From: a virus | Taxonomy: Duplodnaviria > Heunggongvirae > Uroviricota > Caudoviricetes | IMG/VR virus record: IMGVR_UViG_3300046474_000237 | Span: 7,469-71,468 of that record | Reading direction: 5' to 3' (one strand) | Length of the DNA: 64,000 bases | Position numbers and translations under genes: made by a program | Notes under the pieces: model-generated | Seen by the model: the letters and a program-made list of their open reading frames with translations, nothing else | What the model was told of the DNA's origin: nothing | Databases searched by the model: none | In this document: one piece after another, positions 6,059 through 59,725 of the stretch | Layout of the letters: each line of letters starts with the position of its first letter | Position numbering within the stretch: the first letter of the stretch is position 1

Positions 6059-6706
6059 ATGTGGAAAGTCCGGAAAGACATAACCGGTCAAGTGTTTGGG
6101 AAGGTGACGGTTATTAAACCGGACTTCGAAAGCGGAGACAGTAGAATGTGGATTTGCAAATGTCAATGTGGCATTGATAAATCTATAAGTAGAGATGCCT
6201 TGAAATCAGGGGCAACTGTATCATGCGGATGTGTAGGTAGAACGTCAAATTTAAAACATGGGATGCATACCTCCAGGACTTACACTTCCTGGTCAAAAAT
6301 GAAAAGTAGATGTTTAAATCCTAACGACGATAACTACTATTTGTATGGGGGCAGAGGCATCTTTATATGTGAAAAATGGTTATCGTTCGAAGGTTTCTTA
6401 GCAGATATGGGCGAACGTCCGGAGGGTATGACTTTGGATAGGATAGACTCCGATAAAGAATACAGCCTTGAAAATTGTAGATGGTCTACTCCTTTAGAAC
6501 AGACGCTTAATAGAGGCGTTACGGTGAAGCTGACATATAAAGGCGAAACTGATTTGCTAGTGAACTGGTGTAATAGATTACACTTGGATAGAAAATTGAT
6601 GTATAGCAGGATAATAGAAAATAGATGGTCTGTAGAACGAGCTTTTGAAGAAGATAAACGTCTCAATCAACACGCTTTTGGCGAAAGAAATAATGGAAGT
6701 AGATAA
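6059..6706 (+). CDS. HNH-family (HNH_3/AP2-like) homing endonuclease-like protein
   Basis: Cys cluster CKCQCG...SCGC. YGGRGI...LDRIDSDKEYSLENCRWSTPLEQTLN resembles phage free-standing endonucleases. Sits directly after the polymerase gene. Confidence 0.5.
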   Translation: MWKVRKDITGQVFGKVTVIKPDFESGDSRMWICKCQCGIDKSISRDALKSGATVSCGCVGRTSNLKHGMHTSRTYTSWSKMKSRCLNPNDDNYYLYGGRGIFICEKWLSFEGFLADMGERPEGMTLDRIDSDKEYSLENCRWSTPLEQTLNRGVTVKLTYKGETDLLVNWCNRLHLDRKLMYSRIIENRWSVERAFEEDKRLNQHAFGERNNGSR

Positions 6707-7148: not shown

Positions 7149-7874
7149 ATGATTGAACTAGGCGTTACTATTACCGGCGCAGACGACGAAGTTGATCCGT
7201 CGATTCTGGATGATATCGGTCGTGAATATCCATTCGTTGAATGGGGCATTCTATTTTCTAAATCCCGTGAGGGCCAACCTCGTTACCCAACAGCGCAGTG
7301 GAGGGAGAAGCTGTACTGGGCAACGAACGATAGAGGTGAATACTACACTCTTGCTGCGCATCTTTGTGGCAAATCGGTAGAGGCGTTTCTGTCTTCTTGG
7401 AAACATTTCGAAAACGAAGTAACGCTAGGCTACAACGCAGTTCAGTTTAATTTCTTGACTGCTGAAAACAAAGACTTGATCTTTGAATTCGCAAAGAGTG
7501 AAAAGAGTACTGTAATCGTTCAGTACAGTGGTAACACGGACATTCTTCTCAATGGCATGTTTGAAGACGAAGTCCCTCCTGATTTGAAGATTCTTCTTGA
7601 CGCTTCTGGCGGCAAGGGTGTTTCCTGGCAGGATGCAGGTTGGCCGGATATTCCAGAACCTTGGGCTAGTCGGTTTGATGTTGGATATGCAGGCGGTATC
7701 AACGTTTACAACGTAGAGCAAACAGTGTTTGAGCTTCTGCAGAGTCACAGGGATGTCGAAAACGGCTATGCATGGATCGACCTTGAATCAGGCGCACGCA
7801 CTGAAGACAAGTTCGACATTGACAAGGTTCTTTCTATTTTGGATAAGGTCGATAAGATCGTAAAGGAGAATTAA
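7149..7874 (+). CDS. TrpF-like (phosphoribosylanthranilate isomerase fold) protein, function unknown
   Basis: LLDASGGKGVSWQD...VGYAGGINVYNVEQ...IDLESGARTE resembles the PRAI TIM-barrel signature. Confidence 0.35.
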   Translation: MIELGVTITGADDEVDPSILDDIGREYPFVEWGILFSKSREGQPRYPTAQWREKLYWATNDRGEYYTLAAHLCGKSVEAFLSSWKHFENEVTLGYNAVQFNFLTAENKDLIFEFAKSEKSTVIVQYSGNTDILLNGMFEDEVPPDLKILLDASGGKGVSWQDAGWPDIPEPWASRFDVGYAGGINVYNVEQTVFELLQSHRDVENGYAWIDLESGARTEDKFDIDKVLSILDKVDKIVKEN

Positions 7875-9297: not shown

Positions 9298-9307
9298 TTG
9301 GTATAAG
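9298..9307 (+). promoter_or_regulatory. phage promoter motif TTGGTATAAG
   Basis: Conserved decamer upstream of the Hen1/Pnkp operon. Confidence 0.55.
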
Positions 9308-9389
9308 TAAGATATTGGACGGTGATTCGTCCCGTCATTAGATTGTCTAAGTTTTTACCTGTAAACCTCTCTTCCAAAAAGGTTAAATA

Positions 9390-10706
9390 ATGTCGGTTCT
9401 TACTCTGGGTTCTGTGAACCCTAAATTTTCATGGGTTATTCAGAAAAACCCTGCAACGATTCGTGAATCCAAAGATCCGTTCAAGAAATCCATCCGTCAA
9501 GGCTCAGTATACGGATGGTTTCTGAAAGGAGACAAAGCTTTTAGGTTGTGGTTCAAGGATCATGCTCTACACTGCTCGTTTGCTGAAGGTCGAGATCAGG
9601 AATTCGAATACTTGGATCGTACGCGGTATGCTTCACCATATCTCCCGATCAGTCTGATCACGAACTGTCTTGCAACGGCGTTCAAGGAATTGCAGGAAGA
9701 AGACACTGTTGCTCCTTTTAGCGCCTGGCTTGAGACAACGGTTGAGATTCGCAGTGCTAGCATGCTGAAACACATCACTCAACACTTCAATGGGACGTTC
9801 GGATTCGATGAAGGATATGGATTTCATTCCGAGCTGATTTCAGGTCATGCTTACAAAGTTCGCATTGTCGGACCTAGCGTGCATCACATGTTGAACGCAG
9901 CAATGGTTATTTTTCTCATGTTCTGTGTTTCGACAAAGGGCATATACATAAACCTCAAGGGTGATAACGTAGAGAAGTACATCAATGCAATTAACCGCAT
10001 CGATGCTCCGTACTTCATTCGATACCTCTTTAAACGGAATGTATTCTCGAATCGTGATACCTTTGCTAAAAACAAGTCGTTGCTCGATACGCCCCAAATT
10101 GATCTCTGGCACGGGGACACTCTCAGTCAACGTAAAGAGGCTATCTTCCCGCACTTGGGAGGAGGATCGGTCCTCATTGACATTGGGTGCGGCGAACTCA
10201 ATTATTCGATCCCGCTCAGTGCAAAGTATGAACAAGTCCTTGCGTATGAAGCGGATGAAGAAGTACGTGAGAATGCCGTGGGGAAAGCCACTGGTAGGGG
10301 AGTTGAGAATATTACCTTCAAAGAAGCAGCAACTCCTGAATCAGTTGACGATTGCAGCGCTCTATTCGATGGAGCTGATGTACTCATCACTGAAGTGCTT
10401 GAACACATGGAAAAGAGGGATGCACAACTTCTGATTCAAGCTGTTCTCAAGACTGACTTCAACAAGCTGGTTATCACCGTTCCTAATGCAGAATTCAACG
10501 TGAACTATCTGATGGAAGAAGGTCAATTCCGTCATGATGACCACAAGTGGGAACCTGGTTTCAAGGAATTTTCAAATTGGTTCACATCTATCGTCAGAGG
10601 TGAAAACCGTGTCGAGGGTATCGTTTGGACAACAGAAGGTATTGGCGACAAGGTTAACGGTGTTTCCACCTCAACGATGATTGTACTTACAAAAATCAAG
10701 GACTAA
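9390..10706 (+). CDS. hen1: Hen1-type RNA 3'-end 2'-O-methyltransferase (bacterial Hen1 of the Pnkp/Hen1 RNA repair system)
   Basis: SAM motif VLIDIGCGE. Metal-binding EVLEHM and the signature FRHDDHKWEPGFKEF (Hen1 FRHxDHxFE motif) in the C-terminal half. Length 438 aa as in bacterial Hen1. Directly upstream of pnkp. Confidence 0.7.
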   Translation: MSVLTLGSVNPKFSWVIQKNPATIRESKDPFKKSIRQGSVYGWFLKGDKAFRLWFKDHALHCSFAEGRDQEFEYLDRTRYASPYLPISLITNCLATAFKELQEEDTVAPFSAWLETTVEIRSASMLKHITQHFNGTFGFDEGYGFHSELISGHAYKVRIVGPSVHHMLNAAMVIFLMFCVSTKGIYINLKGDNVEKYINAINRIDAPYFIRYLFKRNVFSNRDTFAKNKSLLDTPQIDLWHGDTLSQRKEAIFPHLGGGSVLIDIGCGELNYSIPLSAKYEQVLAYEADEEVRENAVGKATGRGVENITFKEAATPESVDDCSALFDGADVLITEVLEHMEKRDAQLLIQAVLKTDFNKLVITVPNAEFNVNYLMEEGQFRHDDHKWEPGFKEFSNWFTSIVRGENRVEGIVWTTEGIGDKVNGVSTSTMIVLTKIKD

Positions 10707-10708
10707 GC

Positions 10709-13144
10709 ATGAAAATCGAAACTAAGCTTCATACCGTCTTTATTCTCGTCGGACCTTCGATGTGCGGTAAGAGCACGTTTGCAAGGCAGTTCCAACTTGC
10801 TCTCGATGAGCAGCTTCACAAGGTAGGTGTACCTGGCGTAGTTAAGGTAATAAGCTCCGATGCAGAGCGTCAGAGCCTCTATTCGCATGGGTCGCTACAT
10901 CGGTATTCCGGACTCATGAGCGAGGCGTCAGAGGCCGCATTCAAGGTTTTGATGGCGAAGTTTGAAGCTGCGATCATGTTCCCGATCAACAGCGAGTTTG
11001 TGATCATCGATACGACTGGTATGAATGACCAGTTTCGTAAGGAAGTAAAGAAGATTGCAGACAAGCACGAGTACCGTACTGAATTGGTTACTTTCGAGTA
11101 CACCAATAAGTCGTATGCATCTGAATCTACTCCTGCAGAAAAATTAGTTGTAGACAGTAGCGCAGCTCGTTTTAAACAGAAAGTTCTTCCTAATCTCGGT
11201 CGCAAAGAGCACGACGGTAACATTCGTATACGTGAACGTGATCCGAATCACTGGTTTGGTATCGAAGTTGAAATCGAAGACCTCGATATCTATGCAAAGA
11301 GCCATTTGTATCTCCCACTCCATGAAGAACTTGTAGTTATCGGAGATATACACGAGCACGTAACTGCATTTCAGACTCTTGACATGCAGCTTATGAAATC
11401 TCGTGATAGTAATGCTACCTCACCTAAGGAAGTACTGGTAGGAGATTATCTCGATAAAGGTGGAAACACTGAAGATACGATCATCGTCATCGAGAACTTC
11501 GTAGAGCAAGGCGGAATCATTGTTCATGGCAATCATGAGAGCTACGCTGTAAAGCGTATTAAAGGGGAGATTAAAAACCCCGATCTTGAACTGGAGGCAA
11601 AGTACATGTCTTCACTCAAGGTTCTCTTGAAAGATCCTGGCCTTGCAGCTAGAGTGGTAAATCTGTTCGATAATCACTCAGTTCCATTTCTGAAGGTAAT
11701 TGGAAGGGATGTACGGACCGTGTACGTAACTCACGCTCCTTGTGAGAACAAGTATCTCGGTAAGATGAGCAGCGATGCACTCAAGGCTCAGCGTAATCTT
11801 TTCGGACGTCGTGACAAAGACTACCGTGAAGCGTACAAGTTCATCTTCGAAGAGGCCGTGGGAAATCATCCCCTTCACGTATTTGGCCACGTAGCTCACA
11901 ACGCAAATAAACTGGAATTCCGTAACAAGATCTTCCTGGACACCGGCGCTGTGTATGGCGGTAAGCTTACGGCATTCGTGTACAAGAACAATCGGTATGG
12001 GTTCTACGAAGTCAAGACTGAATCGTTGGTTGAACATCAGAAAGAACTGCAGTCGAATCTGACTGTGCCTATCAATGCACCGGAACGTCCTTTTAGCATC
12101 TACGACTACAAGTTGTCTCCCGACGACATGAAGTTTCTAAATCGTACGCTGAAGAACGGCATTAAGTACATTTCTGGTACGATGGCCCCTGCTCCGTCAA
12201 CGGACACTCAGATTGAAAGTCTTGAAGCTGGGCTTGATTACTTTAATAGTAGAGGTGTTCAGTTCGTTGTTATCGAGCCTAAGTTTATGGGTTCTCGTTG
12301 TCAAGCATATCTGTACAAAAAGGATCCTTCGAAGTCGTTTCTTGTTTCTCGGAATGGTTTCAAGATTCGAATGACAGAACAGCTTCAGACGATGCTTGAC
12401 AATATTCCTAAACAACTGGATGATCTCGGGTTCGAATGGGAAGACGAGCTTATTCTTGATGGGGAACTTGAGCCCTGGACAACTCTCGGCAGGGGTCTGG
12501 TTGAAGAACAGTTCAAAGCGTATGAAGGCCTTGTACACTACGAACTTTCAACGCTGGCTCAAGACGAAGAGTTTAACAACTTGGACTTCAAGCAGAAAAT
12601 TGACGCTCAAGGTCTGTTGGAAAATGATCTTAAAACGTTCAGTGATACGCTTGATATCTACGCTCAAGATGGCGAACCGTTCTATAGCCCCTTTGCAATA
12701 CTGAAGTGTGATGGTAAAGTTACTAACACTCAAATCGAGCTTGCCCAGTCGTTCTTTAGTGTGAGCACTTACGATGCCCTGACAATCGATGTAACTGATC
12801 CAGAAGAAATTCAGCTGGCCAAAGAGTTCTTCGAGAAAGTCACTGTTGAGAAGAACATGGAGGGTGTCGTTATCAAACCATTGACTTTGAATGATGAAAT
12901 CGCACCGTACATGAAAGTCCGGAATGAAAATTACCTGACTCTCGTTTATGGTTACGACTACAAACGCCGCTATGAAGCCCTGTGCAAACAGAAGCGGATT
13001 GGTGGCAAACTCAAAGTCTCTATCCGGGAACATGAACTCGCAATGAAGATGCTTTCAGCGGATAATGGCCCTGCGGTAACTGAGCTTGTTGTGAAGATGA
13101 TTTCGCAGCTCAGTAAAGAGAAAGAGTTGGATCCGAGACTTTAA
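10709..13144 (+). CDS. pnkp: polynucleotide kinase-phosphatase with C-terminal ligase-like domain (bacterial Pnkp)
   Basis: P-loop GPSMCGKST. Calcineurin-type phosphoesterase motifs GDIHEH, GDYLDKGG, VHGNHE. C-terminal adenylyltransferase-like region around VVIEPKFMGSRC. 811 aa. Confidence 0.7.
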   Translation: MKIETKLHTVFILVGPSMCGKSTFARQFQLALDEQLHKVGVPGVVKVISSDAERQSLYSHGSLHRYSGLMSEASEAAFKVLMAKFEAAIMFPINSEFVIIDTTGMNDQFRKEVKKIADKHEYRTELVTFEYTNKSYASESTPAEKLVVDSSAARFKQKVLPNLGRKEHDGNIRIRERDPNHWFGIEVEIEDLDIYAKSHLYLPLHEELVVIGDIHEHVTAFQTLDMQLMKSRDSNATSPKEVLVGDYLDKGGNTEDTIIVIENFVEQGGIIVHGNHESYAVKRIKGEIKNPDLELEAKYMSSLKVLLKDPGLAARVVNLFDNHSVPFLKVIGRDVRTVYVTHAPCENKYLGKMSSDALKAQRNLFGRRDKDYREAYKFIFEEAVGNHPLHVFGHVAHNANKLEFRNKIFLDTGAVYGGKLTAFVYKNNRYGFYEVKTESLVEHQKELQSNLTVPINAPERPFSIYDYKLSPDDMKFLNRTLKNGIKYISGTMAPAPSTDTQIESLEAGLDYFNSRGVQFVVIEPKFMGSRCQAYLYKKDPSKSFLVSRNGFKIRMTEQLQTMLDNIPKQLDDLGFEWEDELILDGELEPWTTLGRGLVEEQFKAYEGLVHYELSTLAQDEEFNNLDFKQKIDAQGLLENDLKTFSDTLDIYAQDGEPFYSPFAILKCDGKVTNTQIELAQSFFSVSTYDALTIDVTDPEEIQLAKEFFEKVTVEKNMEGVVIKPLTLNDEIAPYMKVRNENYLTLVYGYDYKRRYEALCKQKRIGGKLKVSIREHELAMKMLSADNGPAVTELVVKMISQLSKEKELDPRL

Positions 13145-13160
13145 ATAATCTCTGTAATCA

Positions 13161-13169
13161 TGGTATAAG
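13161..13169 (+). promoter_or_regulatory. phage promoter motif TGGTATAAG
   Basis: Conserved motif. Followed by a ~330-nt highly structured leader. Confidence 0.5.
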
Positions 13170-13495
13170 TACCTGGGTAAAGTATAGTCATTCGCAACTA
13201 GCAGATGGTGGAGAAAGTAACTTTCTCTTTTACTCTCTGGGAACACTCAAAGAGTGTTTTACCCAGTACCAGGTACCAACCAACGAGTTTACCCAGTAGT
13301 AACTTAATACCGTAGATGTTTTACGGTAGCCTTGCAAGTATTTGTTTGTTTTAGCCGCATCAAAACGAAGGCCAGCGAGTAACTTTCTGGCATTAAACTT
13401 CGGGACCCCACGTGAATCGGCCTACGGCCGTTCTCGACCCGAACTACCCTAACGGGAACGTGTTGCAAGGAACACTTGTGAATAAGGAGAAATAA

Positions 13496-20163: not shown

Positions 20164-20421
20164 ATGCAAGGTATGAAATACATTATTGTAAATGATAAGC
20201 ATGCACTTATCTTTCCCGCTGCATTGTATCACCGAGACGCGTTTCTATTTTTTAGGAGTGGGACCAGCGGAGGCAAAGTAACTGGCGCTGGTTATATCGG
20301 TGCCGATGATAAGGGTAAGCTTTTCCTGTACGGACGTAGTGAAGGGTTCAATCTCGATGCTGACCCAAAAGATATTGAGCTGATTATGCAGGCACTGCAT
20401 CGTCCTGAGTTCTGTCGATAG
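20164..20421 (+). CDS. hypothetical protein
   Basis: 85 aa. Its 3' end overlaps the convergent HNH gene. Confidence 0.45.
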   Translation: MQGMKYIIVNDKHALIFPAALYHRDAFLFFRSGTSGGKVTGAGYIGADDKGKLFLYGRSEGFNLDADPKDIELIMQALHRPEFCR

Positions 20422-20761
20422 GATCTTTATCGATTTTGTCCAACTCAAAGTGAATTTCTCGGTGACAATTAGCACAGACCAAAATACACTTGTCTAGTTC
20501 TATTTTCATTTTCTCCCAGGACTTTGTAATTCCGGATTGTGCTAATCCAAAATCTTTTTCAGTCGGGTCTACGTGGTGAAATTCTAAAGCTGCTACGCAT
20601 TTGTTATAGTTGCAGTTTTGGCATTTACCACCTTTGTATTCTATTGCCCTAAGCTTTAATCTACGACGAGTTCTATCGACGTGATATTTGTTTTTACATC
20701 CTGGACTACAGAACTTTTGCTTAGCTTCTTTCAGGCATAAATGCCATGCACATTTACTCAT
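20384..20761 (-). CDS. HNH endonuclease (CX2C...HH...CANCH family)
   Basis: GGKCQNCNYNKCVAALEFHHVDPTEKDF...CANCHREIH. Paralogous to the C-termini of the ORFs at 28060 and 39521. Minus-strand insertion in a plus-strand region. Confidence 0.7.
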   Translation of the reverse strand: MSKCAWHLCLKEAKQKFCSPGCKNKYHVDRTRRRLKLRAIEYKGGKCQNCNYNKCVAALEFHHVDPTEKDFGLAQSGITKSWEKMKIELDKCILVCANCHREIHFELDKIDKDPIDRTQDDAVPA

Positions 20762-22650: not shown

Positions 22651-22806
22651 ATGAAAAAGCTTAAAGCTTGGTTCATCGAATGGAATAGACGAAGAAAGAT
22701 GGACCCGTTCGAACGGGCTTTACTTAGAGAGCAGGAGTTTCAAGCCGCTCTACAGGCAAAGATACTGTATGTACTGAAGAAGATGCGAGAGCGAGGCGAA
22801 ATATGA
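22651..22806 (+). CDS. small hypothetical protein (51 aa)
   Basis: RBS aagagg 8 nt upstream. ATGA overlap with the PTH2 gene. Confidence 0.4.
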   Translation: MKKLKAWFIEWNRRRKMDPFERALLREQEFQAALQAKILYVLKKMRERGEI

Positions 22807-23216
22807 GCCATAAGCAAGTAATTGTGATGCGCAAAGATCTTGGAATGCGCAAAGGCAAGATGATCGCTCAAGGTGCTCATGCAAGTATGAAAGCGATTCT
22901 TGATCAAGGCCTTTATGAAAAACTTACCGAAGTAAGGGTTAACGAACAAGAGCTTGTGTATTTTCATCTCCATGTTGATACACGTATGAAGGACTGGCTC
23001 CTAGGCAACTTCAAGAAAGTCTGCGTGTATGTAAATTCTGAAGAAGAACTGTTAGCCCTCTATGCAAAAGCAATGGAAGCTGGCATAATTACTACATTGA
23101 TTACAGATGCAGGACTTACGGAATTTAACGGTGTCCCGACCAATACATGCATTGCAGTAGGTCCGGACTTCGATGCCAAGATCGATGAAATCACTGGGCA
23201 CTTGCCCCTGTTGTAA
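22803..23216 (+). CDS. pth2: peptidyl-tRNA hydrolase, PTH2 family
   Basis: MRKDLGMRKGKMIAQGAHAS and the C-terminal LITDAGLTEFNGVPTNTCIAVGP match the PTH2 signature. Confidence 0.75.
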   Translation: MSHKQVIVMRKDLGMRKGKMIAQGAHASMKAILDQGLYEKLTEVRVNEQELVYFHLHVDTRMKDWLLGNFKKVCVYVNSEEELLALYAKAMEAGIITTLITDAGLTEFNGVPTNTCIAVGPDFDAKIDEITGHLPLL

Positions 23217-24200: not shown

Positions 24201-24809
24201 CTAATCAATTTTGAGTTTGTTGTGTTTAACAACTTTTACACATAGCTCAAAAAACTCTTCTAAAGAAAGATCGCCTTTAGCGAAGTTTGCTGCCTTGGTA
24301 GCGAATTCACAATTTTCAAGGGTGTTCAAACCTCCTTTAGATCTAGGTACTCTGTGATCTAGGCTGTAACTTGCAGTATCGCCAAAGTCTATTGTGTCAC
24401 CTGTTAGATAACAAGTCGAACCACATTTTTCTAAAAGATTTTTAGAACTAAAAGTAACAGGTTCCATAATTTTGTTTCCCTGTCTATAATCGGCAGCTCT
24501 CATAAAATTCTTAATTTTGCTTCTGATGGGGTTTGTTTTTGAAATACGTTGATGTTCTGGCGTTTTAAAAACAGTTTGAGTTTTAGGCTCTATATACGGT
24601 ATATACATAAACGTTTCTATTTTTCGCTTTAAAGGATCAGCTTTCCTTCTGCGATTTTGAGACGTTTTGAATTTGTCTTTAGAAGTATTGTTGCAATAGT
24701 ATGCGACTGTAGATTTTGCGCAGCCTAATTGCTCAACGATTTTGTTGTAGGATAAGCCTTGACTTCTTAGTTCAAGTATCTTATCCTTAAGTGTAGTTTC
24801 ATTATCCAT
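24201..24809 (-). CDS. HNH homing endonuclease (N-terminal HTH, C-terminal HNH motif DHRVPRSKGG...N)
   Basis: YSLDHRVPRSKGGLNTLENCEFATKAANFAKGD. On the minus strand, abutting tRNA-Ile inside the tRNA cluster. AT-rich codon usage. Confidence 0.75.
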   Translation of the reverse strand: MDNETTLKDKILELRSQGLSYNKIVEQLGCAKSTVAYYCNNTSKDKFKTSQNRRRKADPLKRKIETFMYIPYIEPKTQTVFKTPEHQRISKTNPIRSKIKNFMRAADYRQGNKIMEPVTFSSKNLLEKCGSTCYLTGDTIDFGDTASYSLDHRVPRSKGGLNTLENCEFATKAANFAKGDLSLEEFFELCVKVVKHNKLKID

Positions 24810-43563: not shown

Positions 43564-44700
43564 ATGTCACACAGTAAACTGTATCATGAAGCAGCACAAA
43601 TGTACGCTGCAACTTTCGGTAGTAAAAAACTCGCAGTAGACACAGAAGAAAAGCAGTATGACCTGGCAGTTGTAATGGGTCGATTTGAACCGCTCCACGC
43701 AGGGCATCAGATTCTCCTCAACAAGGCGTTGATGGTAGCTGATAGGGTGCTGGTTCTTATCGGATCTTCGAATGCGCCACGTACTATCAAGAACCCGTTC
43801 ACTTATGAAGAACGTGCTCAAATGGTAGTCCAGTCGGTCGGTACTTCAGAAGTAATGACGGCTCCGCTCGTTGACAATCCTTACTCAGATGATGAGTGGG
43901 TTAAGCAAGTTCAGGACGAAATCAAGTCTGCTCTTATCGCAGGCCATTCTTGGTCTGATAAAGATGTTCCACGCAAAGTCGCAATCGTCGGTAACAAGAA
44001 AGATGAAAGTTCGTATTACCTGGATTTGTTTCCGCAGTATGAATATGTATCTGTCGATGAAGTAAAGCTTGGTTTCGACGCTACGACCATTCGGGAAGTA
44101 ATCTTTGAGAGGCCCGGTTTCATCGAGCTTCTCAAGAGCTTAGTACCGGAGTATACTTTTAGCTTCATCAGGGAATTCATCAAGACCTCGGAGTATCTCC
44201 GTCTGGTACGTGAATACAAGATGGTGCAGAAGTATAAAGATTCCTGGAAGGCAGCTCCGTATGCGCCTACGTTTGTGACGGTCGATGCAATTTGCAAGAA
44301 GGCTGGACACGTCCTCATGGTTAGGCGTAAGGCTGCTCCTGGAGAGGGACTCTGGGCATTGCCAGGTGGGTTCCTAGAACAAAAAGAGAGACTTACAGAT
44401 GGTGCGATCCGTGAACTACAAGAGGAAACTTCGTTGGACCTCCCAAGAGGTTTACTTAGCGGTAGTATGTCTACCGGTGTTGTTTTTGATCATCCTGGGC
44501 GTAGCTTGCGCGGTAGAACTATTACGCATGCTTTTCTCTTTGATCTGGACCGTGCGGACAAAAAGCCAGGCCTTCCTAGAGTCAAAGGCGCGGATGACGC
44601 AGTAGAAGCAAAATGGATTCCCATTGCGGAACTCCTTAAGATGTCAGACCAGATCTTTGAAGATCATCTGAGCATTATCCGTACAGTACTTGGTGTATAA
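43564..44700 (+). CDS. nadM: bifunctional NMN adenylyltransferase / Nudix hydrolase (NadM-Nudix)
   Basis: HxGH motif VVMGRFEPLHAGH at the N-terminus. Nudix box GGFLEQKERLTDGAIRELQEETSL at the C-terminus. Confidence 0.7.
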   Translation: MSHSKLYHEAAQMYAATFGSKKLAVDTEEKQYDLAVVMGRFEPLHAGHQILLNKALMVADRVLVLIGSSNAPRTIKNPFTYEERAQMVVQSVGTSEVMTAPLVDNPYSDDEWVKQVQDEIKSALIAGHSWSDKDVPRKVAIVGNKKDESSYYLDLFPQYEYVSVDEVKLGFDATTIREVIFERPGFIELLKSLVPEYTFSFIREFIKTSEYLRLVREYKMVQKYKDSWKAAPYAPTFVTVDAICKKAGHVLMVRRKAAPGEGLWALPGGFLEQKERLTDGAIRELQEETSLDLPRGLLSGSMSTGVVFDHPGRSLRGRTITHAFLFDLDRADKKPGLPRVKGADDAVEAKWIPIAELLKMSDQIFEDHLSIIRTVLGV

Positions 44701-44752
44701 ACAAGTCCCGGAGAAAGACTCTGGGCATTTCTTAATTAACGAGGCGTTAATC

Positions 44753-46150
44753 ATGTCACAATTCAAAATCAATCCCCTTCTAAACGCAGACTCATATAAG
44801 CACAGCCACTTCCTTCAATACCCGGAAGGTGCTACTGCATTGTCTTCCTACGTCGAAGCACGTAAGGACAATAGCGGTTTCGGCATTACTCATGTAACTC
44901 CGTTTGGTCTTCAAGGCTATATCAAGGATCATCTGCTTACTCCGATCACTGCTAAAGATGTAGCTCAAGCGGCTGCGGTTTGCAAGGTTCATGGTGAGCC
45001 TTTTGCAGAAGATGCATTCCGTAAGGTAGTAGAAGTATATGGTGGTCTTGCACCTATCACTATTCGGGCTGTTGAAGAAGGCCGTCAAGTTCCGATTGGC
45101 AATGCGCTGATCGATGTCGAATGTCACGACAAAGACATGCTGTGGATGGGATCTTTCTATGAAACACAAATCCTTCGTGCGGCTTGGTACGGCACTACGG
45201 TTGCAACTGTTAGCCGCCACTGTAAAGAAATTATTTTCAAGGGACTTGTTGATACTTGTGACAAGCCACTTGATGAACTTCCTTTTAAGCTGCACGATTT
45301 CGGCGCTCGGGGTGCTAGTTCTGCTGAAACTTCTGCTATTGCTGGCGCCGCGCACTTAGTAAATTTCATGGGCACGGACACTATGCTTGGCATGGAGTAC
45401 GCTAACCAATTCTACGGAGCTGACTATGCCAATCTTGGCTTTAGTATTCCTGCTGCTGAGCATAGTACTATTACTAGCTGGGGCCGTAACGGAGAAGCAC
45501 AAGCGTACCGCAACATGGCTGAGAAGTTTGGCAATGGTCTCTTCGCTGTCGTATCTGATAGTTATGATATTTTTAACGCCGTAAAGAATGTATGGGGCGG
45601 TGAACTGCGTGATTTTGTCCTCGCTTTGCCTGGCACTCTCGTTGTTAGACCTGACTCCGGCGATCCGGTATCGGTTGTTAGGACTGTTGTGGGGATTCTC
45701 GCAGACAAGTTCGGATACACGACAAACGGTAAGGGATTCAAAGTCCTGAACAAGGTTCGAGTCATTCAAGGTGACGGTGTGAATCCTACTTCCATTCAAG
45801 CCATCCTCACGGCTCTTAAAATGGATGGTTTCAGTGCTGAGAACGTTGCATTCGGTATGGGTGGTGCCTTGCATCAAAAAATCGATAGGGATACATTTTC
45901 GTTTGCAATGAAGGCCTCAGCTATAGAAATCGATGGTAAGTGGAATGATGTGTACAAGGATCCGATTGCTGGTGGAAAGACTAGCAAACGCGGTCGTCTG
46001 GCACTGGTAGAAGACGAGAAGGGTGAACTGACTACGATTCGTCGTGAAAATGCAATGGGTCGTGACGATCATCTCGAAGTAGTGTACACTGGTGGTAAGC
46101 TTATCAAGGAACTGACATTCAACGAAGTACGTAGGAACGCTGCAATCTAA
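44753..46150 (+). CDS. nadV: nicotinamide phosphoribosyltransferase
   Basis: MSQFKINPLLNADSYKHSH N-terminus typical of NadV/Nampt. RBS gagg. The six-frame ORF starts at 44690. Confidence 0.7.
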   Translation: MSQFKINPLLNADSYKHSHFLQYPEGATALSSYVEARKDNSGFGITHVTPFGLQGYIKDHLLTPITAKDVAQAAAVCKVHGEPFAEDAFRKVVEVYGGLAPITIRAVEEGRQVPIGNALIDVECHDKDMLWMGSFYETQILRAAWYGTTVATVSRHCKEIIFKGLVDTCDKPLDELPFKLHDFGARGASSAETSAIAGAAHLVNFMGTDTMLGMEYANQFYGADYANLGFSIPAAEHSTITSWGRNGEAQAYRNMAEKFGNGLFAVVSDSYDIFNAVKNVWGGELRDFVLALPGTLVVRPDSGDPVSVVRTVVGILADKFGYTTNGKGFKVLNKVRVIQGDGVNPTSIQAILTALKMDGFSAENVAFGMGGALHQKIDRDTFSFAMKASAIEIDGKWNDVYKDPIAGGKTSKRGRLALVEDEKGELTTIRRENAMGRDDHLEVVYTGGKLIKELTFNEVRRNAAI

Positions 46151-54390: not shown

Positions 54391-54820
54391 ATCTAATGAA
54401 ACACTGTACGCACACCTACAACAGGTGCGGACTGAAGCTCTTAAACTGAAGGATTCTTTTTCGTTTACTAAGCTTGGCACCGTACTTGGTGAAGCCAAGC
54501 AATTGGCTACTAAGAAAGAGAACCGTGATCCTACCGATGAAGAAGTTATCGGCATTGTCAAGAAGGGTCTTGAAGGTATTGCAGAAATGCTTGAGCATGA
54601 GAAGGATAATCTTAAGCGTGGCACTCTACTTGCTGAACGTCAGCTTCTTCAAACCTTTATGCCTACTCAACTGTCAGAGACTGAAATCAAGGTAATCATT
54701 GAGAATGCTGCGATGGATAGCATTGGTAAGATCATGGCTATCTTCAAAAACAATTTCGCAGGGAAATATGATGGCAAACTCGTCTCTAAACTCGCTGAAG
54801 AGTTCCTTAGCTCAAAGTGA
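54383..54820 (+). CDS. YqeY/GatB C-terminal domain protein
   Basis: LSETEIKVIIENAAMDSIGKIMAIFKNNFAGKYDGKLVSKLAEEFL matches the YqeY/GatB domain signature. RBS aagggg. The six-frame ORF starts at 54362. Confidence 0.55.
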   Translation: MAKSNETLYAHLQQVRTEALKLKDSFSFTKLGTVLGEAKQLATKKENRDPTDEEVIGIVKKGLEGIAEMLEHEKDNLKRGTLLAERQLLQTFMPTQLSETEIKVIIENAAMDSIGKIMAIFKNNFAGKYDGKLVSKLAEEFLSSK

Positions 54821-55529
54821 AGCTCCGGATCTCGATGTAAACAAGGTTCGTTTACTGTTCCTTGATGTGGACGGAGTAATAAATAGTACCAAGACATGGC
54901 TACTAGCGGGATGTAAGTGGCCGTGGCCTTTGTATGACACTGATGGCTGTCAACTGTATTTCGGGGGAGGTCCTCGTAATAAAACGCTTAAAGCTCCGTA
55001 TGTGGAAACACCTGAAGCTATTGATAAGTATGCAGTTGGACTTCTCAACAAACTTCTCATTGCTACTAATGCACACATCGTATTGTCTTCGACTTGGCGT
55101 GAAGGGCTAGACATCTACGATATTCGTAAGATGTTAGGTGCAATGGGCTTTGATGAAAACCGTGTGATCGGTAAGACTGCCAGTACGTTTAACTCTCGTG
55201 GGGAGCAGATCTTCAACTTCATTCAAGCAGTTGGAGAAAAACGTTTCTACAGCGGACCAGACTTCTTGGTTTCAAATGGACGTCTGATCCAGTCACTGAG
55301 TAAAGTTCCAATGAAACTTGACTCTTATGTGATCATCGATGACATAGATGATTTCCTGCAAGATCAAGGTGCTTTTTTCGTTCAGACCAACGAACAAGAA
55401 GGACTTACGCTTGAACAGACTTTGGTTGCAGGAAAGGTTTTGACTAAGAAAGAAGACTTTGAGTTGAATCACCTTATTCATGGTGAGAATTACCAAGGGC
55501 GTATTTTGCATCTCCCTGAAATTCAATAA
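54768..55529 (+). CDS. HAD-superfamily hydrolase
   Basis: LLFLDVDGVINS (DxDGV) and VLSSTWRE. Start uncertain: ATG at 54768 or 54771; the six-frame ORF uses a TTG at 54699. Confidence 0.45.
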   Translation: MMANSSLNSLKSSLAQSEAPDLDVNKVRLLFLDVDGVINSTKTWLLAGCKWPWPLYDTDGCQLYFGGGPRNKTLKAPYVETPEAIDKYAVGLLNKLLIATNAHIVLSSTWREGLDIYDIRKMLGAMGFDENRVIGKTASTFNSRGEQIFNFIQAVGEKRFYSGPDFLVSNGRLIQSLSKVPMKLDSYVIIDDIDDFLQDQGAFFVQTNEQEGLTLEQTLVAGKVLTKKEDFELNHLIHGENYQGRILHLPEIQ

Positions 55530-56789: not shown

Positions 56790-57610
56790 GAGCCGTTCTT
56801 ATGTTGGGTTATCAATTGGTGATTACTCCCCGGCATTACTCTTTTGCTCACTCACGCTTTAATCCTCGTATTGATTCTAAAGAGTCAGTACCTGATTTAA
56901 AGTTTATGGACCGATAGAATGGGTTATCTAACTCCAAGACGCAAATACAGGTTCGAGTCCTGTACTCCGCTTCTGTTGCGGAGTTCATCTAATTGGCAGG
57001 ATGGCGACTCCTGATTCCATTCGATTACTTGTCCATCCCTCTTTCACGGGCCGTTAGAATATCGATTATCTATCTTACAGGCAAACTCGATATTCACTTC
57101 TTTGCCCGTTTCAAGTTTCAAACGAACCGAACGTACTAAGGGTTATCTACTTCGACTAGTTAGAACGAAAGCATTACGTAGTTTCTGGAAACAGAATAGT
57201 GCCTGAGTCTAATACTGCTATACTCTGCTTGAGCTAAAGCTATTGTGGGATGAACTCCCATATCTCCCTTGTCAATCACTTGTTCGTTTTTTCAGTTTGT
57301 GAGCCGTTTAGAATTGGGTTATCCTTTTAAGATACTCCCCCAGTTCATTTCTTTTGCTCACTTCAATTTTACGGACCGTTAGTATTAGGTTATCTACTTT
57401 TGGGAAGTCGGGACGTTGGTTCGAATCCAACTGCAGCCTTGAGGGTTGTATAGCTTAGTGGATAGAGCACGTAACATTTCCTAGTACGCCTTTTGTCCGT
57501 TTCAGTTTTAAATACAGAGCCGCTTTAATTAGATTATCTTCTCCTATATCGAAGGACTGCCCAGAGGGGGCTCTCGAAAGAGACGGGTTCGACTCCCAGT
57601 CTAAACATCT
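56790..57610 (+). ncRNA. array of seven tRNA-like repeat units (candidate Y-RNA-like ncRNAs) upstream of rsr
   Basis: Units start at 56790, 56908, 57048, 57123, 57301, 57373 and 57517, each with a box like GRRCCGTTAGAATnGGTTATCT. Units 1-3 are pairwise homologous to units 5-7, suggesting a block duplication. Units 2 and 6 carry a T-arm (ggttcgagtcc / ggttcgaatcc) followed by a hairpin and a D-arm-like agcttagtggatagagc, without a complete cloverleaf. Confidence 0.45.
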
Positions 57611-58051: not shown

Positions 58052-58093
58052 TAGTGTTTTAAAACTTTGTTCCCAATCCAAAAGGAGCCTCAA

Positions 58094-59725
58094 ATGTCTT
58101 TCAATACCCTCGCAAAGAATACGAATACCCGAGTAGCAGCACGTACCACACCGCAGAACAAGCCTGCTGGCAATGCACCTGTAGCACAGGTTAAGAACAA
58201 CGCTGGTGGCTTTGTGTTTGAGATCTCTGGCATTCAAAAGCTGGATCGATTCCTCATCATCGGCACGAGCGGCGGTACGTTCTATGCTAACGAAAAGGAT
58301 CTCACGAAGCAGAACACTGACGAGATCGTGGCTCTGATCAAGGCTAACGGCAAGGTTGTGGTTGACCGTGTGGTTGAGATCAGCCAAGCCGGTCGTGCCA
58401 AGAACAATGACTATGCGCTTCTGGTCATGGCTCTGGTCTTCACCCACGGCGATGTTGCAACCAAGATGTATGCAAAGGATAAGTTGAACCTCGTGGCTCG
58501 TACTGGCACGCACTTCATGCACTTCGTTGCATTCTCAAATGGGATGCGAGGTTGGGGCCGTTCGCTTAAGAGCGTAGTTCAGAACTGGTATTCCTCGAAG
58601 GATACCGATAAGCTGGCATTCCAGATCGTGAAGTACAAGCAACGTGACGGCTGGTCCCACAAGGACATCATGCGTCTGGCTCACGTTAAGCCTGGTACTG
58701 ATCCGGTTCGTCAGAACCTGTACAAGTTCATCAACAAGGGTTCAGAGTCGCTGACGCAAGGTGACCTCGTGCCTCAACTTCTGATTGCTGCAGAGCAAGC
58801 CAAGACTGCAGATACGAAGACGTTGATCAAGCTGATCCAGGATTTCAAGCTCACGCACGAAATGATCCCGAATGAGCAAAAGAATGACCCGAAGGTTTGG
58901 GAAGCTCTCGTGCCTCACATGGGTCTGGGTGCGCTGGTTCGTAACCTGAACAAGCTCACGGCAGTTGGTCTGATCAAGCCTTTCTCGGAAACGAGCAAGA
59001 TTGTCAGTGTCAAGCTTCATGACGTAGAAGCAATTCGTCGTGAACGCCTACATCCTATGTCCATTATCGTAGCCCAAAAGGTTTACGCAAAGGGTCAGGG
59101 GGATAAGGGTTCGCTTGTATGGTCACCTGCACGCAACATCGTGTCGGATCTGGAAGATGCGTTCTATGTTTCGTTTGAAGCAGTAGAACCGTCCGGTAAG
59201 AACATTCTTCTTGCTCTGGACGTATCTGGTTCGATGAGCTGTGCAATCCCCGGAGCGCCACTGTTGAGCTGTGCTGAAGGCACTGCAATCATGGCAATGG
59301 TCACAGCTCGTACTGAGCCTTGGACCGAAATCCGTGGTTTCACGAGCGGTAGGAATGGCTTCAAGGATCTGGGTATCACGAAGAACGATACCTTGGCTAC
59401 AGCTTGCAGCAAGGTCCGCGACAATAACTTCGGTGGAACGAACTGTGCACTGCCGTTCGAGTATGCGCTTCAAAACAAGTGGGACGTGGATGCTGTCTGT
59501 GTTTACACGGATAATGAAACGTGGTCTGGTGGCCAACACGTGTTCCAAGCAGCACGCAAGTACCGTCAAGGTATGAACAAGCCTGAAGCTAAGCTTATCA
59601 CTGTTGGTATGGCAGTGAACAACTTCAGCATTGCTGACCCGACTGACCGCAATATGCTGGACGTGGTTGGTTTCGATACGGCAACTCCGAGGTTCATTTC
59701 GGAATTTGTGGCTGGCAACCTGTAA
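58094..59725 (+). CDS. rsr: Ro60/Rsr orthologue (TROVE domain plus vWA domain)
   Basis: LDRFLIIGTSGGTFYA and VARTGTHFMHFVAFSNGMRGWGRSLKSVVQNWY closely parallel the Ro60 TROVE motifs. C-terminal vWA MIDAS motif LALDVSGSMS. RBS aaaggag. The six-frame ORF starts at 58067. Confidence 0.8.
   Translation: MSFNTLAKNTNTRVAARTTPQNKPAGNAPVAQVKNNAGGFVFEISGIQKLDRFLIIGTSGGTFYANEKDLTKQNTDEIVALIKANGKVVVDRVVEISQAGRAKNNDYALLVMALVFTHGDVATKMYAKDKLNLVARTGTHFMHFVAFSNGMRGWGRSLKSVVQNWYSSKDTDKLAFQIVKYKQRDGWSHKDIMRLAHVKPGTDPVRQNLYKFINKGSESLTQGDLVPQLLIAAEQAKTADTKTLIKLIQDFKLTHEMIPNEQKNDPKVWEALVPHMGLGALVRNLNKLTAVGLIKPFSETSKIVSVKLHDVEAIRRERLHPMSIIVAQKVYAKGQGDKGSLVWSPARNIVSDLEDAFYVSFEAVEPSGKNILLALDVSGSMSCAIPGAPLLSCAEGTAIMAMVTARTEPWTEIRGFTSGRNGFKDLGITKNDTLATACSKVRDNNFGGTNCALPFEYALQNKWDVDAVCVYTDNETWSGGQHVFQAARKYRQGMNKPEAKLITVGMAVNNFSIADPTDRNMLDVVGFDTATPRFISEFVAGNL

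Follow-up and report, generated by a model that had tools for sequence, protein, structure and literature searches.

A divergent hen1-pnkp cassette in a tRNA-rich phage probably encodes a complete RNA repair machine

The hen1-pnkp locus

The window, a stretch of 64,000 nucleotides from a Caudoviricetes record of IMG/VR (IMGVR_UViG_3300046474_000237), carries two adjacent, co-oriented genes in the order hen1-pnkp. The upstream gene, hen1 (9390..10706, + strand, ATG start), encodes a 438-aa protein that by homology would be an RNA 3'-terminal ribose 2'-O-methyltransferase. Only 2 nt (TAA-GC-ATG) separate it from pnkp (10709..13144, + strand, ATG start), whose 811-aa product is a predicted trifunctional Pnkp with kinase, phosphatase, and ligase domains. 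An earlier, sequence-only reading had placed both frames exactly here, and the motifs it quoted are present, namely EVLEHM and FRHDDHKWE in hen1 and GDIHEH, GDYLDKGG, and GNHE in pnkp.

A promoter-like motif, T-GGTATAAGTA, is found at 9299..9309 (+ strand), ~80 nt 5' of the hen1 ATG. It resembles an extended -10 element and may act as a promoter. Six exact + strand copies of GGTATAAGTA occur in the window, several of them just 5' of + strand genes, including those at 1584 before Thg1, at 9300 before hen1, and at 28643 before an AAA+ ATPase ORF. With at most one mismatch, 11 matches are found versus 2.4 expected, a number reached in 0 of 100 shuffles, and conservation around the copies is limited to the T and the decamer. 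The next T-GGTATAAGTA-like copy lies at 13161..13171 (+ strand), 18 nt past the pnkp stop codon; with copies on both sides, the pair appears bracketed as a separate two-gene unit. A terminator-like hairpin at 13210-13228 does not rise above chance. The surrounding genes belong to DNA replication and repair, encoding a UDG-exonuclease, PolA, RNase H, a Pol X-like enzyme, and RNR, and the cassette stands outside the tRNA array of the phage.

The Hen1 protein

Profile searches of the hen1 product return Pfam Hen1_N (3.5e-45) and Methyltransf_25. A Hen1_N match of this strength sets the protein apart from generic methyltransferases and bears out the Hen1 identity proposed by the sequence-only reading. 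The N-terminal domain (9399..10088, + strand; aa 4-233) covers positions 2-218 of the 222 in profile PF22032, and its residues S8, K19, N20, P21, and G38 are invariant across 20 diverse Hen1 proteins. In characterised systems this domain binds and activates the Pnkp or Rnl ligase (PMC4411300), and the phage domain may have the same ligase-activating role.

The methyltransferase domain (10128..10676, + strand; aa 247-429) is matched by TIGR04074 and contains a SAM motif and metal-binding residues. Invariant in the same 20 proteins are D264-x-G266-C267-G268, E335, E338-H339, R381-H382-x-D384-H385, and E388. Their counterparts in Hen1 from C. thermocellum (CthHen1) are the VIEVIEH and RHRDH motifs, and Hen1 from Capnocytophaga gingivalis (CgiHen1) aligns as well. 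CgiHen1 (4xrp_C) also gives a full-length phmmer match to the phage protein (1.3e-28, residues 3-435) that includes the N-terminal domain. As judged from these profiles and residues, ORF 9390-10706 is a full Hen1, predicted to join a ligase-activating Hen1_N domain to a Mn-type 2'-O-methyltransferase.

The Pnkp protein

Three Pfam domains are recognised in the pnkp product: AAA_33 (4e-07, residues 10-135), Metallophos (7e-07, 209-398), and PNKP_ligase (8.1e-26, 485-783). These matches, like that of Hen1_N, lie far outside what chance would give. At least 1984 homologs were found, and almost all of the top 120 span the full length and contain these domains. The AlphaFold2 model has a pLDDT of 90.7 and matches solved kinase, phosphatase, and ligase modules. 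Invariance was judged across 25 homologs; the Pnkp and Hen1 sets share 25-85% identity.

The 5'-OH polynucleotide kinase domain (10709..11278, + strand; aa 1 to ~190) contains the P-loop GPSMCGKST. Its invariant residues are G20, K21, S50, D51, R54, and D101, and Foldseek aligns it to polynucleotide kinase from C. thermocellum (4gp6/4mde/4gp7; TM 0.77-0.80). The binuclear metallophosphoesterase (2',3'-phosphatase) domain follows at 11321..12046 (+ strand; aa ~205-446), with G212-D213-x-H215, G245-D246, N275-H276, H342, G393-H394, and D411 invariant. It matches the phosphatase of C. thermocellum Pnkp (CthPnkp; 4j6o) by phmmer (2.6e-09) and by fold (TM 0.67).

The ATP-dependent RNA ligase (adenylyltransferase) domain occupies 12116..13141 (+ strand; aa ~470-811), and Rnl/Pnkp-C ligase structures align to the Pnkp model with TM 0.71-0.75. 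Its motif I lysine, the conserved residue that the sequence-only reading had suggested looking for, is K525 (nt 12281-12283) in EPK525FMGSR, aligned with KHMGSR of CthPnkp and KYMGSY of the C. gingivalis ligase (CgiRnl). Residues K525-x-M-G-S-R530, R548, D584-G-E586, F662, E718-G-x-V-x-K723, and K736-V-R738 are invariant. A PNKP-type ligase domain with this lysine rules out a ligase-less DNA-repair PNKP. Taken on sequence and model, ORF 10709-13144 is a predicted trifunctional Pnkp with kinase, calcineurin-type phosphatase, and PNKP-type ligase in one polypeptide.

Selection and phage relatives

Phage relatives as distant as 64% identity still have the cassette; those in the 64-74% range are IMG/VR viral contigs with lengths of 107-181 kb. 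Measured against phage relatives, dN/dS is 0.11-0.15 for hen1 and 0.13 for pnkp, and both genes are under purifying selection. A syntenic phage contig of 181,869 bp, found in two samples, carries the same cassette. Given these viral-contig relatives, the syntenic contig, and PHROG families matched all through it, the window is phage-derived. Judged by PolA, the closest cultured phages (Arash and Vibrio D69/D181/D148) have no such cassette, which makes it dispensable in phages of this type. It has the patchy distribution of an accessory module.

A divergent sister clade of classical Pnkp-Hen1

The domain content and layout are those of classical bacterial Pnkp-Hen1. The Pnkp architecture (kinase, binuclear metallophosphatase, ligase) is the same, Hen1 has the same make-up of N-terminal ligase activator and Mn-dependent methyltransferase, and the genes are likewise adjacent and co-oriented. 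The phage kinase and phosphatase folds also find their best matches in C. thermocellum structures. The sequence-only reading regarded the order hen1 before pnkp as reversed, which proved mistaken, as this is the order in all three classical PGAP-annotated cassettes (Nostoc, Leptospira, Deinococcus), in 80 of 80 bacterial relatives, and in 23 of 30 informative viral loci.

The label 'bacterial-type' given to the pair obscures how far it lies from the classical family. Against the curated NCBIfam equivalogs, Pnkp reaches 147.1 bits (TIGR04075, bacter_Pnkp; cut-off 750 bits) and Hen1 56.1 bits (TIGR04074, bacter_Hen1; cut-off 340 bits), and membership in both was rejected. The bacterial relatives fall short as well (110-196 and 37-80 bits, respectively). 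With thresholds failed by so wide a margin, exact functional equivalence with the characterised enzymes is an assumption. By blastp, Pnkp shares 35-38% identity within its own clade and 21-25% with classical Pnkp, compared with 56-61% within the classical clade. The phage Pnkp has 811 aa versus about 850-870 aa in the classical proteins, the BLAST alignment of phage to classical Hen1 is limited to the methyltransferase half, and the cassette is phage-borne. On these scores and identities, together with an NJ tree, the pair is placed in a divergent sister clade of classical Pnkp-Hen1 that is common to Firmicutes such as Paenibacillus, Brevibacillus, and Listeria and to many large phages. CgiRnl also groups within this large clade, whose internal branches have low bootstrap support, and the clade seems to extend to the stand-alone Rnl ligases of the three-component Pnkp1-Rnl-Hen1 system. 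Bacterial copies of the cassette have no consistent DNA-repair neighbours (e.g., L007).

Comparison with other repair systems

The C. gingivalis Pnkp1-Rnl-Hen1 system (PDB 4XRP/4XRU) provides the best PDB matches of the phage ligase and Hen1 (1.1e-37 and 1.3e-28), for the ligase also by fold, and both of its proteins are closer to those of the phage than the C. thermocellum proteins are. For Hen1, phmmer gives 1e-28 over the full length with CgiHen1 versus 2e-10 with CthHen1. For the ligase, the figures are 1.1e-37 with CgiRnl (4xru_B) versus 2e-14 with the CthPnkp ligase, and Foldseek yields TM 0.75 (E 1.2e-23) versus 0.61-0.71. The C. gingivalis ligase is a protein of its own, and healing is performed by a T4-like Pnkp1, with kinase and HAD/DxDxT phosphatase, that is encoded away from hen1 (Wang et al. 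2015, PMC4411300). In contrast, a single phage polypeptide unites the ligase with a kinase and a calcineurin-type phosphatase. The Pnkp1 chains of 4XRP/4XRU give no match to the phage Pnkp even at E <= 10, and the latter has no HAD_PNKP domain. With its fused ligase, the phage pair was therefore rejected as a three-component system.

Phage versions have been described before. Xanthomonas phage XacN1, reported in 2018, encodes PNKP and Hen1 homologs along with 56 tRNAs, Thg1, and peptidyl-tRNA hydrolase (PMC5852040); it is a partial version that makes the idea of counter-defence less new than had been implied. In XacN1 (ORF197-199), the Stenotrophomonas phages CM1 and RAS14, and the Vibrio phages RYC and vB_VpaM_sm033, Hen1 and PNKP-type ligase genes lie side by side in one orientation within large genomes, and their proteins share 27-32% identity with those of the window. 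In XacN1, CM1, and RAS14, Hen1 is preceded by a small separate kinase and followed by a protein of 404-434 aa that consists of the ligase only; no phosphatase adjoins them. In RYC and sm033, a stand-alone Rnl comes first, and after it a single 717-726-aa protein joins Hen1, kinase, and HAD_PNKP. The fused kinase-metallophosphatase-ligase protein was not found among deposited phages, where no record covers >=80% of the query.

Phage T4 likewise encodes a heal-and-seal pathway for broken tRNA, in which Pnkp and Rnl1 counter the PrrC anticodon nuclease (PMC4411300). Its kinase carries a HAD phosphatase, its ligase is of the unrelated Rnl1 family, and it has no methyltransferase, which would leave the repaired tRNA open to re-cutting.

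tRNAs and RNA-related genes of the window

ARAGORN identifies 21 tRNAs between 19229 and 40111, all on the + strand, and Rfam 16 at gathering score, fewer than the '25 or more' of the sequence-only reading. Neither introns nor split genes were detected among them, and all 21 are intact. The array is dense, with HNH-type endonuclease ORFs interspersed. Two further genes named in that reading were recovered: a Thg1-like gene with its ATG at 1724 (Pfam 7.9e-27; a 276-aa product, as also called in syntenic contig L005) and PTH2 at 22803-23216 (1.2e-31). The window also encodes Ro60/TROVE and HAD_SAK_2 (SAK-type HAD phosphatase) proteins.

Proposed mechanism and role

The pair probably constitutes a complete machine of the Pnkp-Hen1 kind that heals, methylates, and seals RNA, an accessory two-gene unit of divergent sister-clade type in a tRNA-rich phage of ~180 kb that would help to keep translation going under host ribotoxin attack. 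Beyond the residue-level and fold-level checks, the mechanism is modelled on characterised homologs, where Pnkp-Hen1 and Pnkp1-Rnl-Hen1 mend colicin-cleaved tRNA in vitro by a Hen1-dependent ligation, and the methylated junction is protected from being cut again (PMC4411300, PMC3675462). A metal-independent ribonuclease would cut RNA, most plausibly in the tRNA anticodon loop, leaving a 2',3'-cyclic phosphate and a 5'-OH. The metallophosphatase domain of Pnkp would take off the cyclic phosphate and leave a 2'-OH/3'-OH end, and its P-loop kinase domain would phosphorylate the 5'-OH. The Hen1 methyltransferase domain, using SAM and Mn2+, would methylate the 3'-terminal nucleotide at its 2'-OH, while docking of the Hen1 N-terminal domain may switch on the Pnkp ligase. 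Adenylylation of K525 and sealing would then produce a 2'-O-methylated junction resistant to the same nuclease. In infection, such repair would likely keep the translation apparatus working once host anticodon nucleases or ribotoxins are triggered, with the 21 phage tRNAs, the Thg1-like 5'-end repair enzyme, PTH2, Ro60, and the SAK-type HAD phosphatase as candidate partners. Counter-defence against anticodon nucleases is plausible from this context. Thg1-like genes also adjoin hen1 or pnkp at independent loci, lying between both genes in L028 and beside them in L091 and L061 (Paenibacillus) and in L030. Weighing against the overall reading are the sub-threshold equivalog scores, the position of the cassette among replication and repair genes, and its absence from the closest cultured phages.

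The same enzymes might instead serve routine RNA processing, either maturing or splicing phage tRNA precursors, joining fragments left by the phage's own nucleases, or protecting phage or host small RNAs by 3'-terminal 2'-O-methylation. Hen1 methyltransferase domains do act as autonomous 3'-end methyltransferases in characterised systems (PMC3675462), the tRNA array is dense and studded with HNH-type ORFs, and the motif shared by Thg1 and hen1 would fit co-regulated RNA housekeeping. However, such a role is unlikely, given that neither introns nor split genes were detected among the tRNAs, that the four activities with a conserved Hen1_N are exactly what 2',3'-cyclic phosphate/5'-OH breaks need, and that the closest cultured phages lack the cassette, as expected more of an accessory conflict gene than of core processing machinery. 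The neighbouring replication and repair genes raise another alternative, in which the pair acts on DNA or RNA-DNA junctions, with Pnkp working alongside the Pol X-like polymerase, RNase H, and PolA to heal 5'-OH/3'-phosphate DNA ends and seal nicks. This is very improbable: the chemistry of Hen1, whose catalytic residues are invariant, depends on a ribose 2'-OH, the ligase falls in the PNKP/Rnl RNA-ligase family rather than a DNA ligase family (DNA_ligase_A_M at 23 bits, below the 26-bit cut-off), and bacterial cassettes lack consistent DNA-repair neighbours. Accessory status and patchy distribution would also suit a weapon, an exclusion factor, or a decaying passenger without current function. 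Low dN/dS, intact active-site residues throughout, and conservation in relatives to 64% identity make this scarcely credible, and PADLOC defence models have no match to Pnkp and only a generic SAM-motif match to Hen1.

A wider scenario is tentative and rather doubtful. The clade may represent a previously unrecognised second Pnkp-Hen1 lineage, abundant in Firmicutes and large phages and missed by curated models. It might be the pool that gave rise to stand-alone Rnl and the split or fused phage forms by domain fission and healing-module swapping, with phages as vehicles. The cassette could then be one arm of an anti-ribotoxin regulon sharing the promoter motif and comprising Thg1-like repair, PTH2, Ro60 with a Y-like RNA, the SAK-HAD phosphatase, replacement tRNAs, and a suppressor tRNA. 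If true, this regulon would exceed in breadth every RNA-damage response described so far in viruses.

The hen1-pnkp gene pair and its products

The two genes lie on the plus strand at 9390-10706 (hen1, 438 aa) and 10709-13144 (pnkp, 811 aa), exactly where the sequence-only reading had placed them. Only 2 nt (TAA-GC-ATG) separate the reading frames, a spacing that suggests translational coupling. The first protein matches the Pfam family Hen1_N (PF22032; E = 3.5e-45, residues 4-233) and in profile searches also carries a class I methyltransferase domain. The second combines an AAA_33 kinase (residues 10-135), a Metallophos phosphatase (209-398) and a PNKP_ligase domain (PF16542; E = 8.1e-26, residues 485-783). 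All motifs quoted in the sequence-only reading occur in these proteins, and the profile matches lie far beyond chance. That reading had named two findings that would speak against it, a first protein lacking the Hen1 N domain and a second lacking the ligase domain; since both Hen1_N and PNKP_ligase are matched, neither applies, and the core identification of Hen1 and Pnkp is confirmed.

The catalytic residues of all three Pnkp modules show no variation in an alignment of the window protein with 24 homologs of 37-75% identity. The invariant positions are G20-K21, S50-D51-x-x-R54 and D101 in the kinase; G212-D213-x-H215, G245-D246, N275-H276, H342, G393-H394 and D411 in the phosphatase; and K525-x-M-G-S-R530, R548, D584-G-E586, F662, E718-G-x-V-x-K723 and K736-V-R738 in the ligase. 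K525 pairs with the motif I lysine of both the classical C. thermocellum Pnkp (CthPnkp, KHMGSR) and the Capnocytophaga gingivalis ligase Rnl (CgiRnl, KYMGSY). Among 20 full-length Hen1 proteins, the SAM motif D264-x-G-C-G268 and the metal-site residues E335, E338-H339 and R381-H382-x-D384-H385 are likewise invariant, and in the alignment these residues correspond to VIEVIEH and RHRDH of C. thermocellum Hen1. In the AlphaFold2 model of Pnkp (pLDDT 90.7), each module separately matches its solved counterpart: the model aligns with Rnl of the Pnkp1-Rnl-Hen1 complex (E = 1.2e-23, TM 0.75), the Pnkp-C/Hen1-N heterodimer (TM 0.71), the CthPnkp phosphatase (TM 0.67) and the C. thermocellum polynucleotide kinase (TM 0.77-0.80).

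A divergent sister clade of Pnkp-Hen1

The pair had been described as bacterial-type, a label that needs correcting, since it falls outside the classical family. Its Pnkp reaches 147 bits on the NCBIfam equivalog TIGR04075 (cut-off 750) and its Hen1 56 bits on TIGR04074 (cut-off 340). The nearest solved relatives come from C. gingivalis, both for the ligase domain (Rnl, 1.1e-37) and, over its full length, for Hen1 (1.3e-28), with the C. thermocellum proteins more distant (2e-14 and 2e-10, respectively). In the three-component system of C. gingivalis, healing falls to a protein of its own, the T4-like Pnkp1, whose phosphatase is of the HAD type (PMC4411300). The window Pnkp, in contrast, has the classical fused kinase-metallophosphatase-ligase layout and no similarity to C. 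gingivalis Pnkp1.

Such proteins are numerous. A search of 5.8 billion proteins yielded at least 1984 Pnkp homologs; the best 120 are almost all 790-900 aa long, share the three domains of the window protein and occur on phage-sized and megabase-sized contigs alike. Relatives were found in at least 212 bacterial species by a GTDB genome scan, the best 80 being mostly from Paenibacillus, Brevibacillus, Listeria, Cohnella and Saccharibacillus at 33-37% identity. The bacterial relatives also score low on the equivalog models (Pnkp 110-196 bits, Hen1 37-80 bits). In pairwise BLAST, the classical Pnkps of Nostoc, Leptospira and Deinococcus share 56-61% identity with one another, and the window Pnkp shares 35-38% with the proteins of Paenibacillus, Listeria and the bacterial locus L007, whereas identity across the two groups falls to 21-25% and only the methyltransferase half of Hen1 aligns. 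A neighbour-joining tree built from ligase domains leaves the classical C. thermocellum domain alone on a long branch and gathers the fused proteins, CgiRnl and the ligase-only proteins of phages into one large clade. Low bootstrap values leave the internal branching of that clade poorly resolved, so fused and split forms are not put in a precise branching order.

Equivalog scores, the BLAST split and the ligase tree together place the window pair, as judged from sequence, in a divergent sister clade of the classical Pnkp-Hen1 systems that has no name in current curated models. Its proteins are labelled ‘predicted kinase’ or ‘hypothetical protein’ in their sources. Spanning those bacterial species and dozens of viral contigs, this large clade links the two characterised architectures, which makes it useful for annotation and for choosing enzymes to characterise.

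The hen1-before-pnkp order had been taken as a reversal of the usual operon; it is in fact the usual order. It holds in all three PGAP-annotated classical cassettes, from three phyla, in 80 of 80 bacterial sister-clade loci (the best 80 of the GTDB relatives) and in 23 of the 30 informative viral loci. Occasional exceptions run from pnkp to hen1, for example L007 and the loci L022/L023. The classical cassette on Deinococcus gobiensis plasmid P2 (locus L124) has two ‘nucleotidyltransferase domain-containing’ genes between hen1 and pnkp (821-2526), neither similar to the Pol X-like ORF of the window, and an AbiEi/AbiEii toxin-antitoxin pair directly downstream.

Distribution among phages

At the nucleotide level the region matches none of 50,697 deposited phages, which marks the phage as uncultured. 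Those related to it, with 64-74% identity, are viral contigs from IMG/VR, 107-181 kb long. One contig of 181,869 bp (L005), present in two samples, is syntenic over Thg1, PolA, RNase H, hen1, pnkp, RNR and PTH2. Judged by PolA, Salmonella phage Arash and Vibrio phages D69, D181 and D148 come closest among cultured phages (45-47% identity); none of them carries the cassette, which is therefore an accessory module.

Pnkp/Hen1 in a phage has been noted before. The 2018 genome paper on phage XacN1 already described a PNKP and a Hen1 homolog alongside 56 tRNAs, Thg1 and peptidyl-tRNA hydrolase (PMC5852040). A Hen1 homolog is encoded in five of the 50,697 deposited phage records, all of which differ from the window in architecture. 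In XacN1, CM1 and RAS14, Hen1 is preceded by a small kinase and followed by a protein that consists of the ligase alone; RYC and sm033 encode a free-standing Rnl and, after it, a protein in which Hen1, kinase and HAD_PNKP are fused. The fused trifunctional Pnkp is absent from all 50,697 records and, among viruses, occurs only in metagenomic contigs, with about 25 of 34 IMG/VR loci showing it. By homology, the window pair adds a new, divergent, phage-borne member to an established type of RNA repair system, for which partial phage precedents exist.

The Hen1-kinase-HAD_PNKP fusion of Vibrio phage RYC (L001, 6137-8290) recurs in vB_VpaM_sm033 (L003, 6146-8326) and in locus L033 (7354-9483). These proteins of 709-726 aa contain the Hen1 N domain and methyltransferase, a T4-type kinase and a HAD_PNKP phosphatase, and are encoded directly 3' of a stand-alone Rnl gene, an arrangement that is the Pnkp1-Rnl-Hen1 three-component system in two genes. 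GenBank names the fusion only as ‘polynucleotide kinase’.

A putative promoter motif around the cassette

The decamer GGTATAAGTA, with an invariant T before it (T-GGTATAAGTA), resembles an extended -10 element. Its six exact copies, at 1584, 9300, 13162, 28643, 32452 and 46437, are all on the plus strand, and allowing up to one mismatch gives 11 matches against 2.4 expected. Three copies lie directly upstream of plus-strand genes, namely Thg1 (1584), hen1 (9300) and an AAA+ ATPase ORF (28643), and the copy at 13162 lies immediately 3' of pnkp. The motif is probably a phage promoter element; hen1 and pnkp, bracketed by two copies, would then form their own two-gene unit, and the copy before Thg1 hints at regulation common to both. 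Around the cassette, generic searches for sigma-70 promoters and for terminators gave nothing above shuffled expectation. The ATPase behind the motif (28884-30962, plus strand, 692 aa) matches PADLOC IetA models in its ATPase domain (1e-18) and PHROG 29662 ‘ATP-dependent protease’.

Proposed function

By homology, residue conservation and predicted fold, the pair very probably carries out heal-methylate-seal chemistry. The phosphatase and kinase of Pnkp would heal broken RNA ends, Hen1 would methylate the 3'-terminal ribose, and the Pnkp ligase, in dependence on Hen1, would seal the break. As for its role, genomic context and analogy with T4 make it reasonably likely that the pair counters anticodon nucleases or ribotoxins of the infected host.

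Two less likely readings are routine RNA processing and DNA-end repair together with the neighbouring replication genes; neither is favoured by the evidence. Nor is a reading of the cassette as a defence gene or a decaying gene: a PADLOC search of the cassette for defence-system identity found nothing specific, and both genes are intact, conserved and under purifying selection, with dN/dS of 0.11-0.15 against phage relatives.

So far T4 Pnkp/Rnl1 acting against PrrC has served as the single paradigm of phage tRNA repair. Defences that cleave tRNA, such as PrrC, RloC, PARIS and retron/PtuAB-type systems, have proved widespread, and a phage-borne repair system that also protects the mended junction against further cleavage would be a counter-measure both stronger and different in kind. 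This phage lineage provides it as an intact and compact pair of proteins that lends itself to direct testing. The advance is incremental, as the result rests on homology, the chemistry has been described and there is a precedent in phages; its main points of note are the unnamed linking sister clade and the unusually broad RNA-repair gene set of this phage.

Other RNA-repair and accessory genes

Thg1 and PTH2, both listed in the earlier reading, are present in the window, and its count of 25 or more tRNAs is revised to 21. Thg1-like genes also adjoin hen1 or pnkp in independent loci (L028, 4552-5364; L091, 6753-7490; L061, 9491-10102; L030, 13241-14380). In L028, a viral locus, the gene is placed between hen1 and pnkp; L091 and L061 are from Paenibacillus and have it close by. 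This recurrence suggests a functional link between 3'-5' repair of tRNA 5' ends and Hen1-Pnkp. A HAD_SAK_2 protein of 276 aa (54699-55529, plus strand; ‘HAD domain in Swiss Army Knife RNA repair proteins’, 1e-17) could be a further RNA end-processing enzyme. A weak match to the same family lies near the bacterial pnkp-hen1 pair of L007 (17475-18107).

The window also encodes a Ro60/TROVE ortholog (58067-59725, plus strand; Pfam vWA_Ro60 4e-55, TROVE 2e-34), preceded by a 2.5-kb stretch without an ORF of at least 100 aa. In this stretch, 560 nt upstream of Ro60, Rfam gives a full-length but sub-threshold match to a YrlA-like Y RNA (57387-57502, plus strand), where ARAGORN finds no tRNA. The candidate scores 30 bits where the gathering threshold is 69 (E = 0.0014), and its predicted fold is unexceptional (z-score -0.8), which makes it too weak to count as support.

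Phages use NAD salvage modules against NAD-depleting defences. Such a pair is found at 43564-46150 (plus strand), comprising an NMNAT/NUDIX (NadR-like) protein (PHROG 395, 2e-73) and a nicotinamide phosphoribosyltransferase (NAMPT; PHROG 448, 7e-145), which suggests that the region gathers counter-defence functions more generally.

An HNH endonuclease gene between PolA and RNase H (6059-6706, plus strand; PHROG 374, 1e-63) is missing at that position from the syntenic contig L005 and is thus probably a mobile homing endonuclease. Three HNH-like ORFs with Cys/His-rich motifs, recognised by eye, lie in the tRNA array (20384-20761 and 24201-24809, minus strand; 28030-28635, plus strand). Between RNase H and the Pol X-like gene, all close phage relatives conserve a 241-aa ORF (7149-7874, plus strand) without matches in Pfam, NCBIfam, PHROGs or PADLOC, which by eye has a TIM-barrel, PRAI-like look (LDASGGKG and AGGI motifs). 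The top tRNA score in the Rfam scan (69 bits) belongs to a tRNA with a CUA anticodon (27076-27151, plus strand), an amber suppressor labelled Pyl by ARAGORN, which may serve stop-codon reassignment or the suppression of host or phage amber codons.
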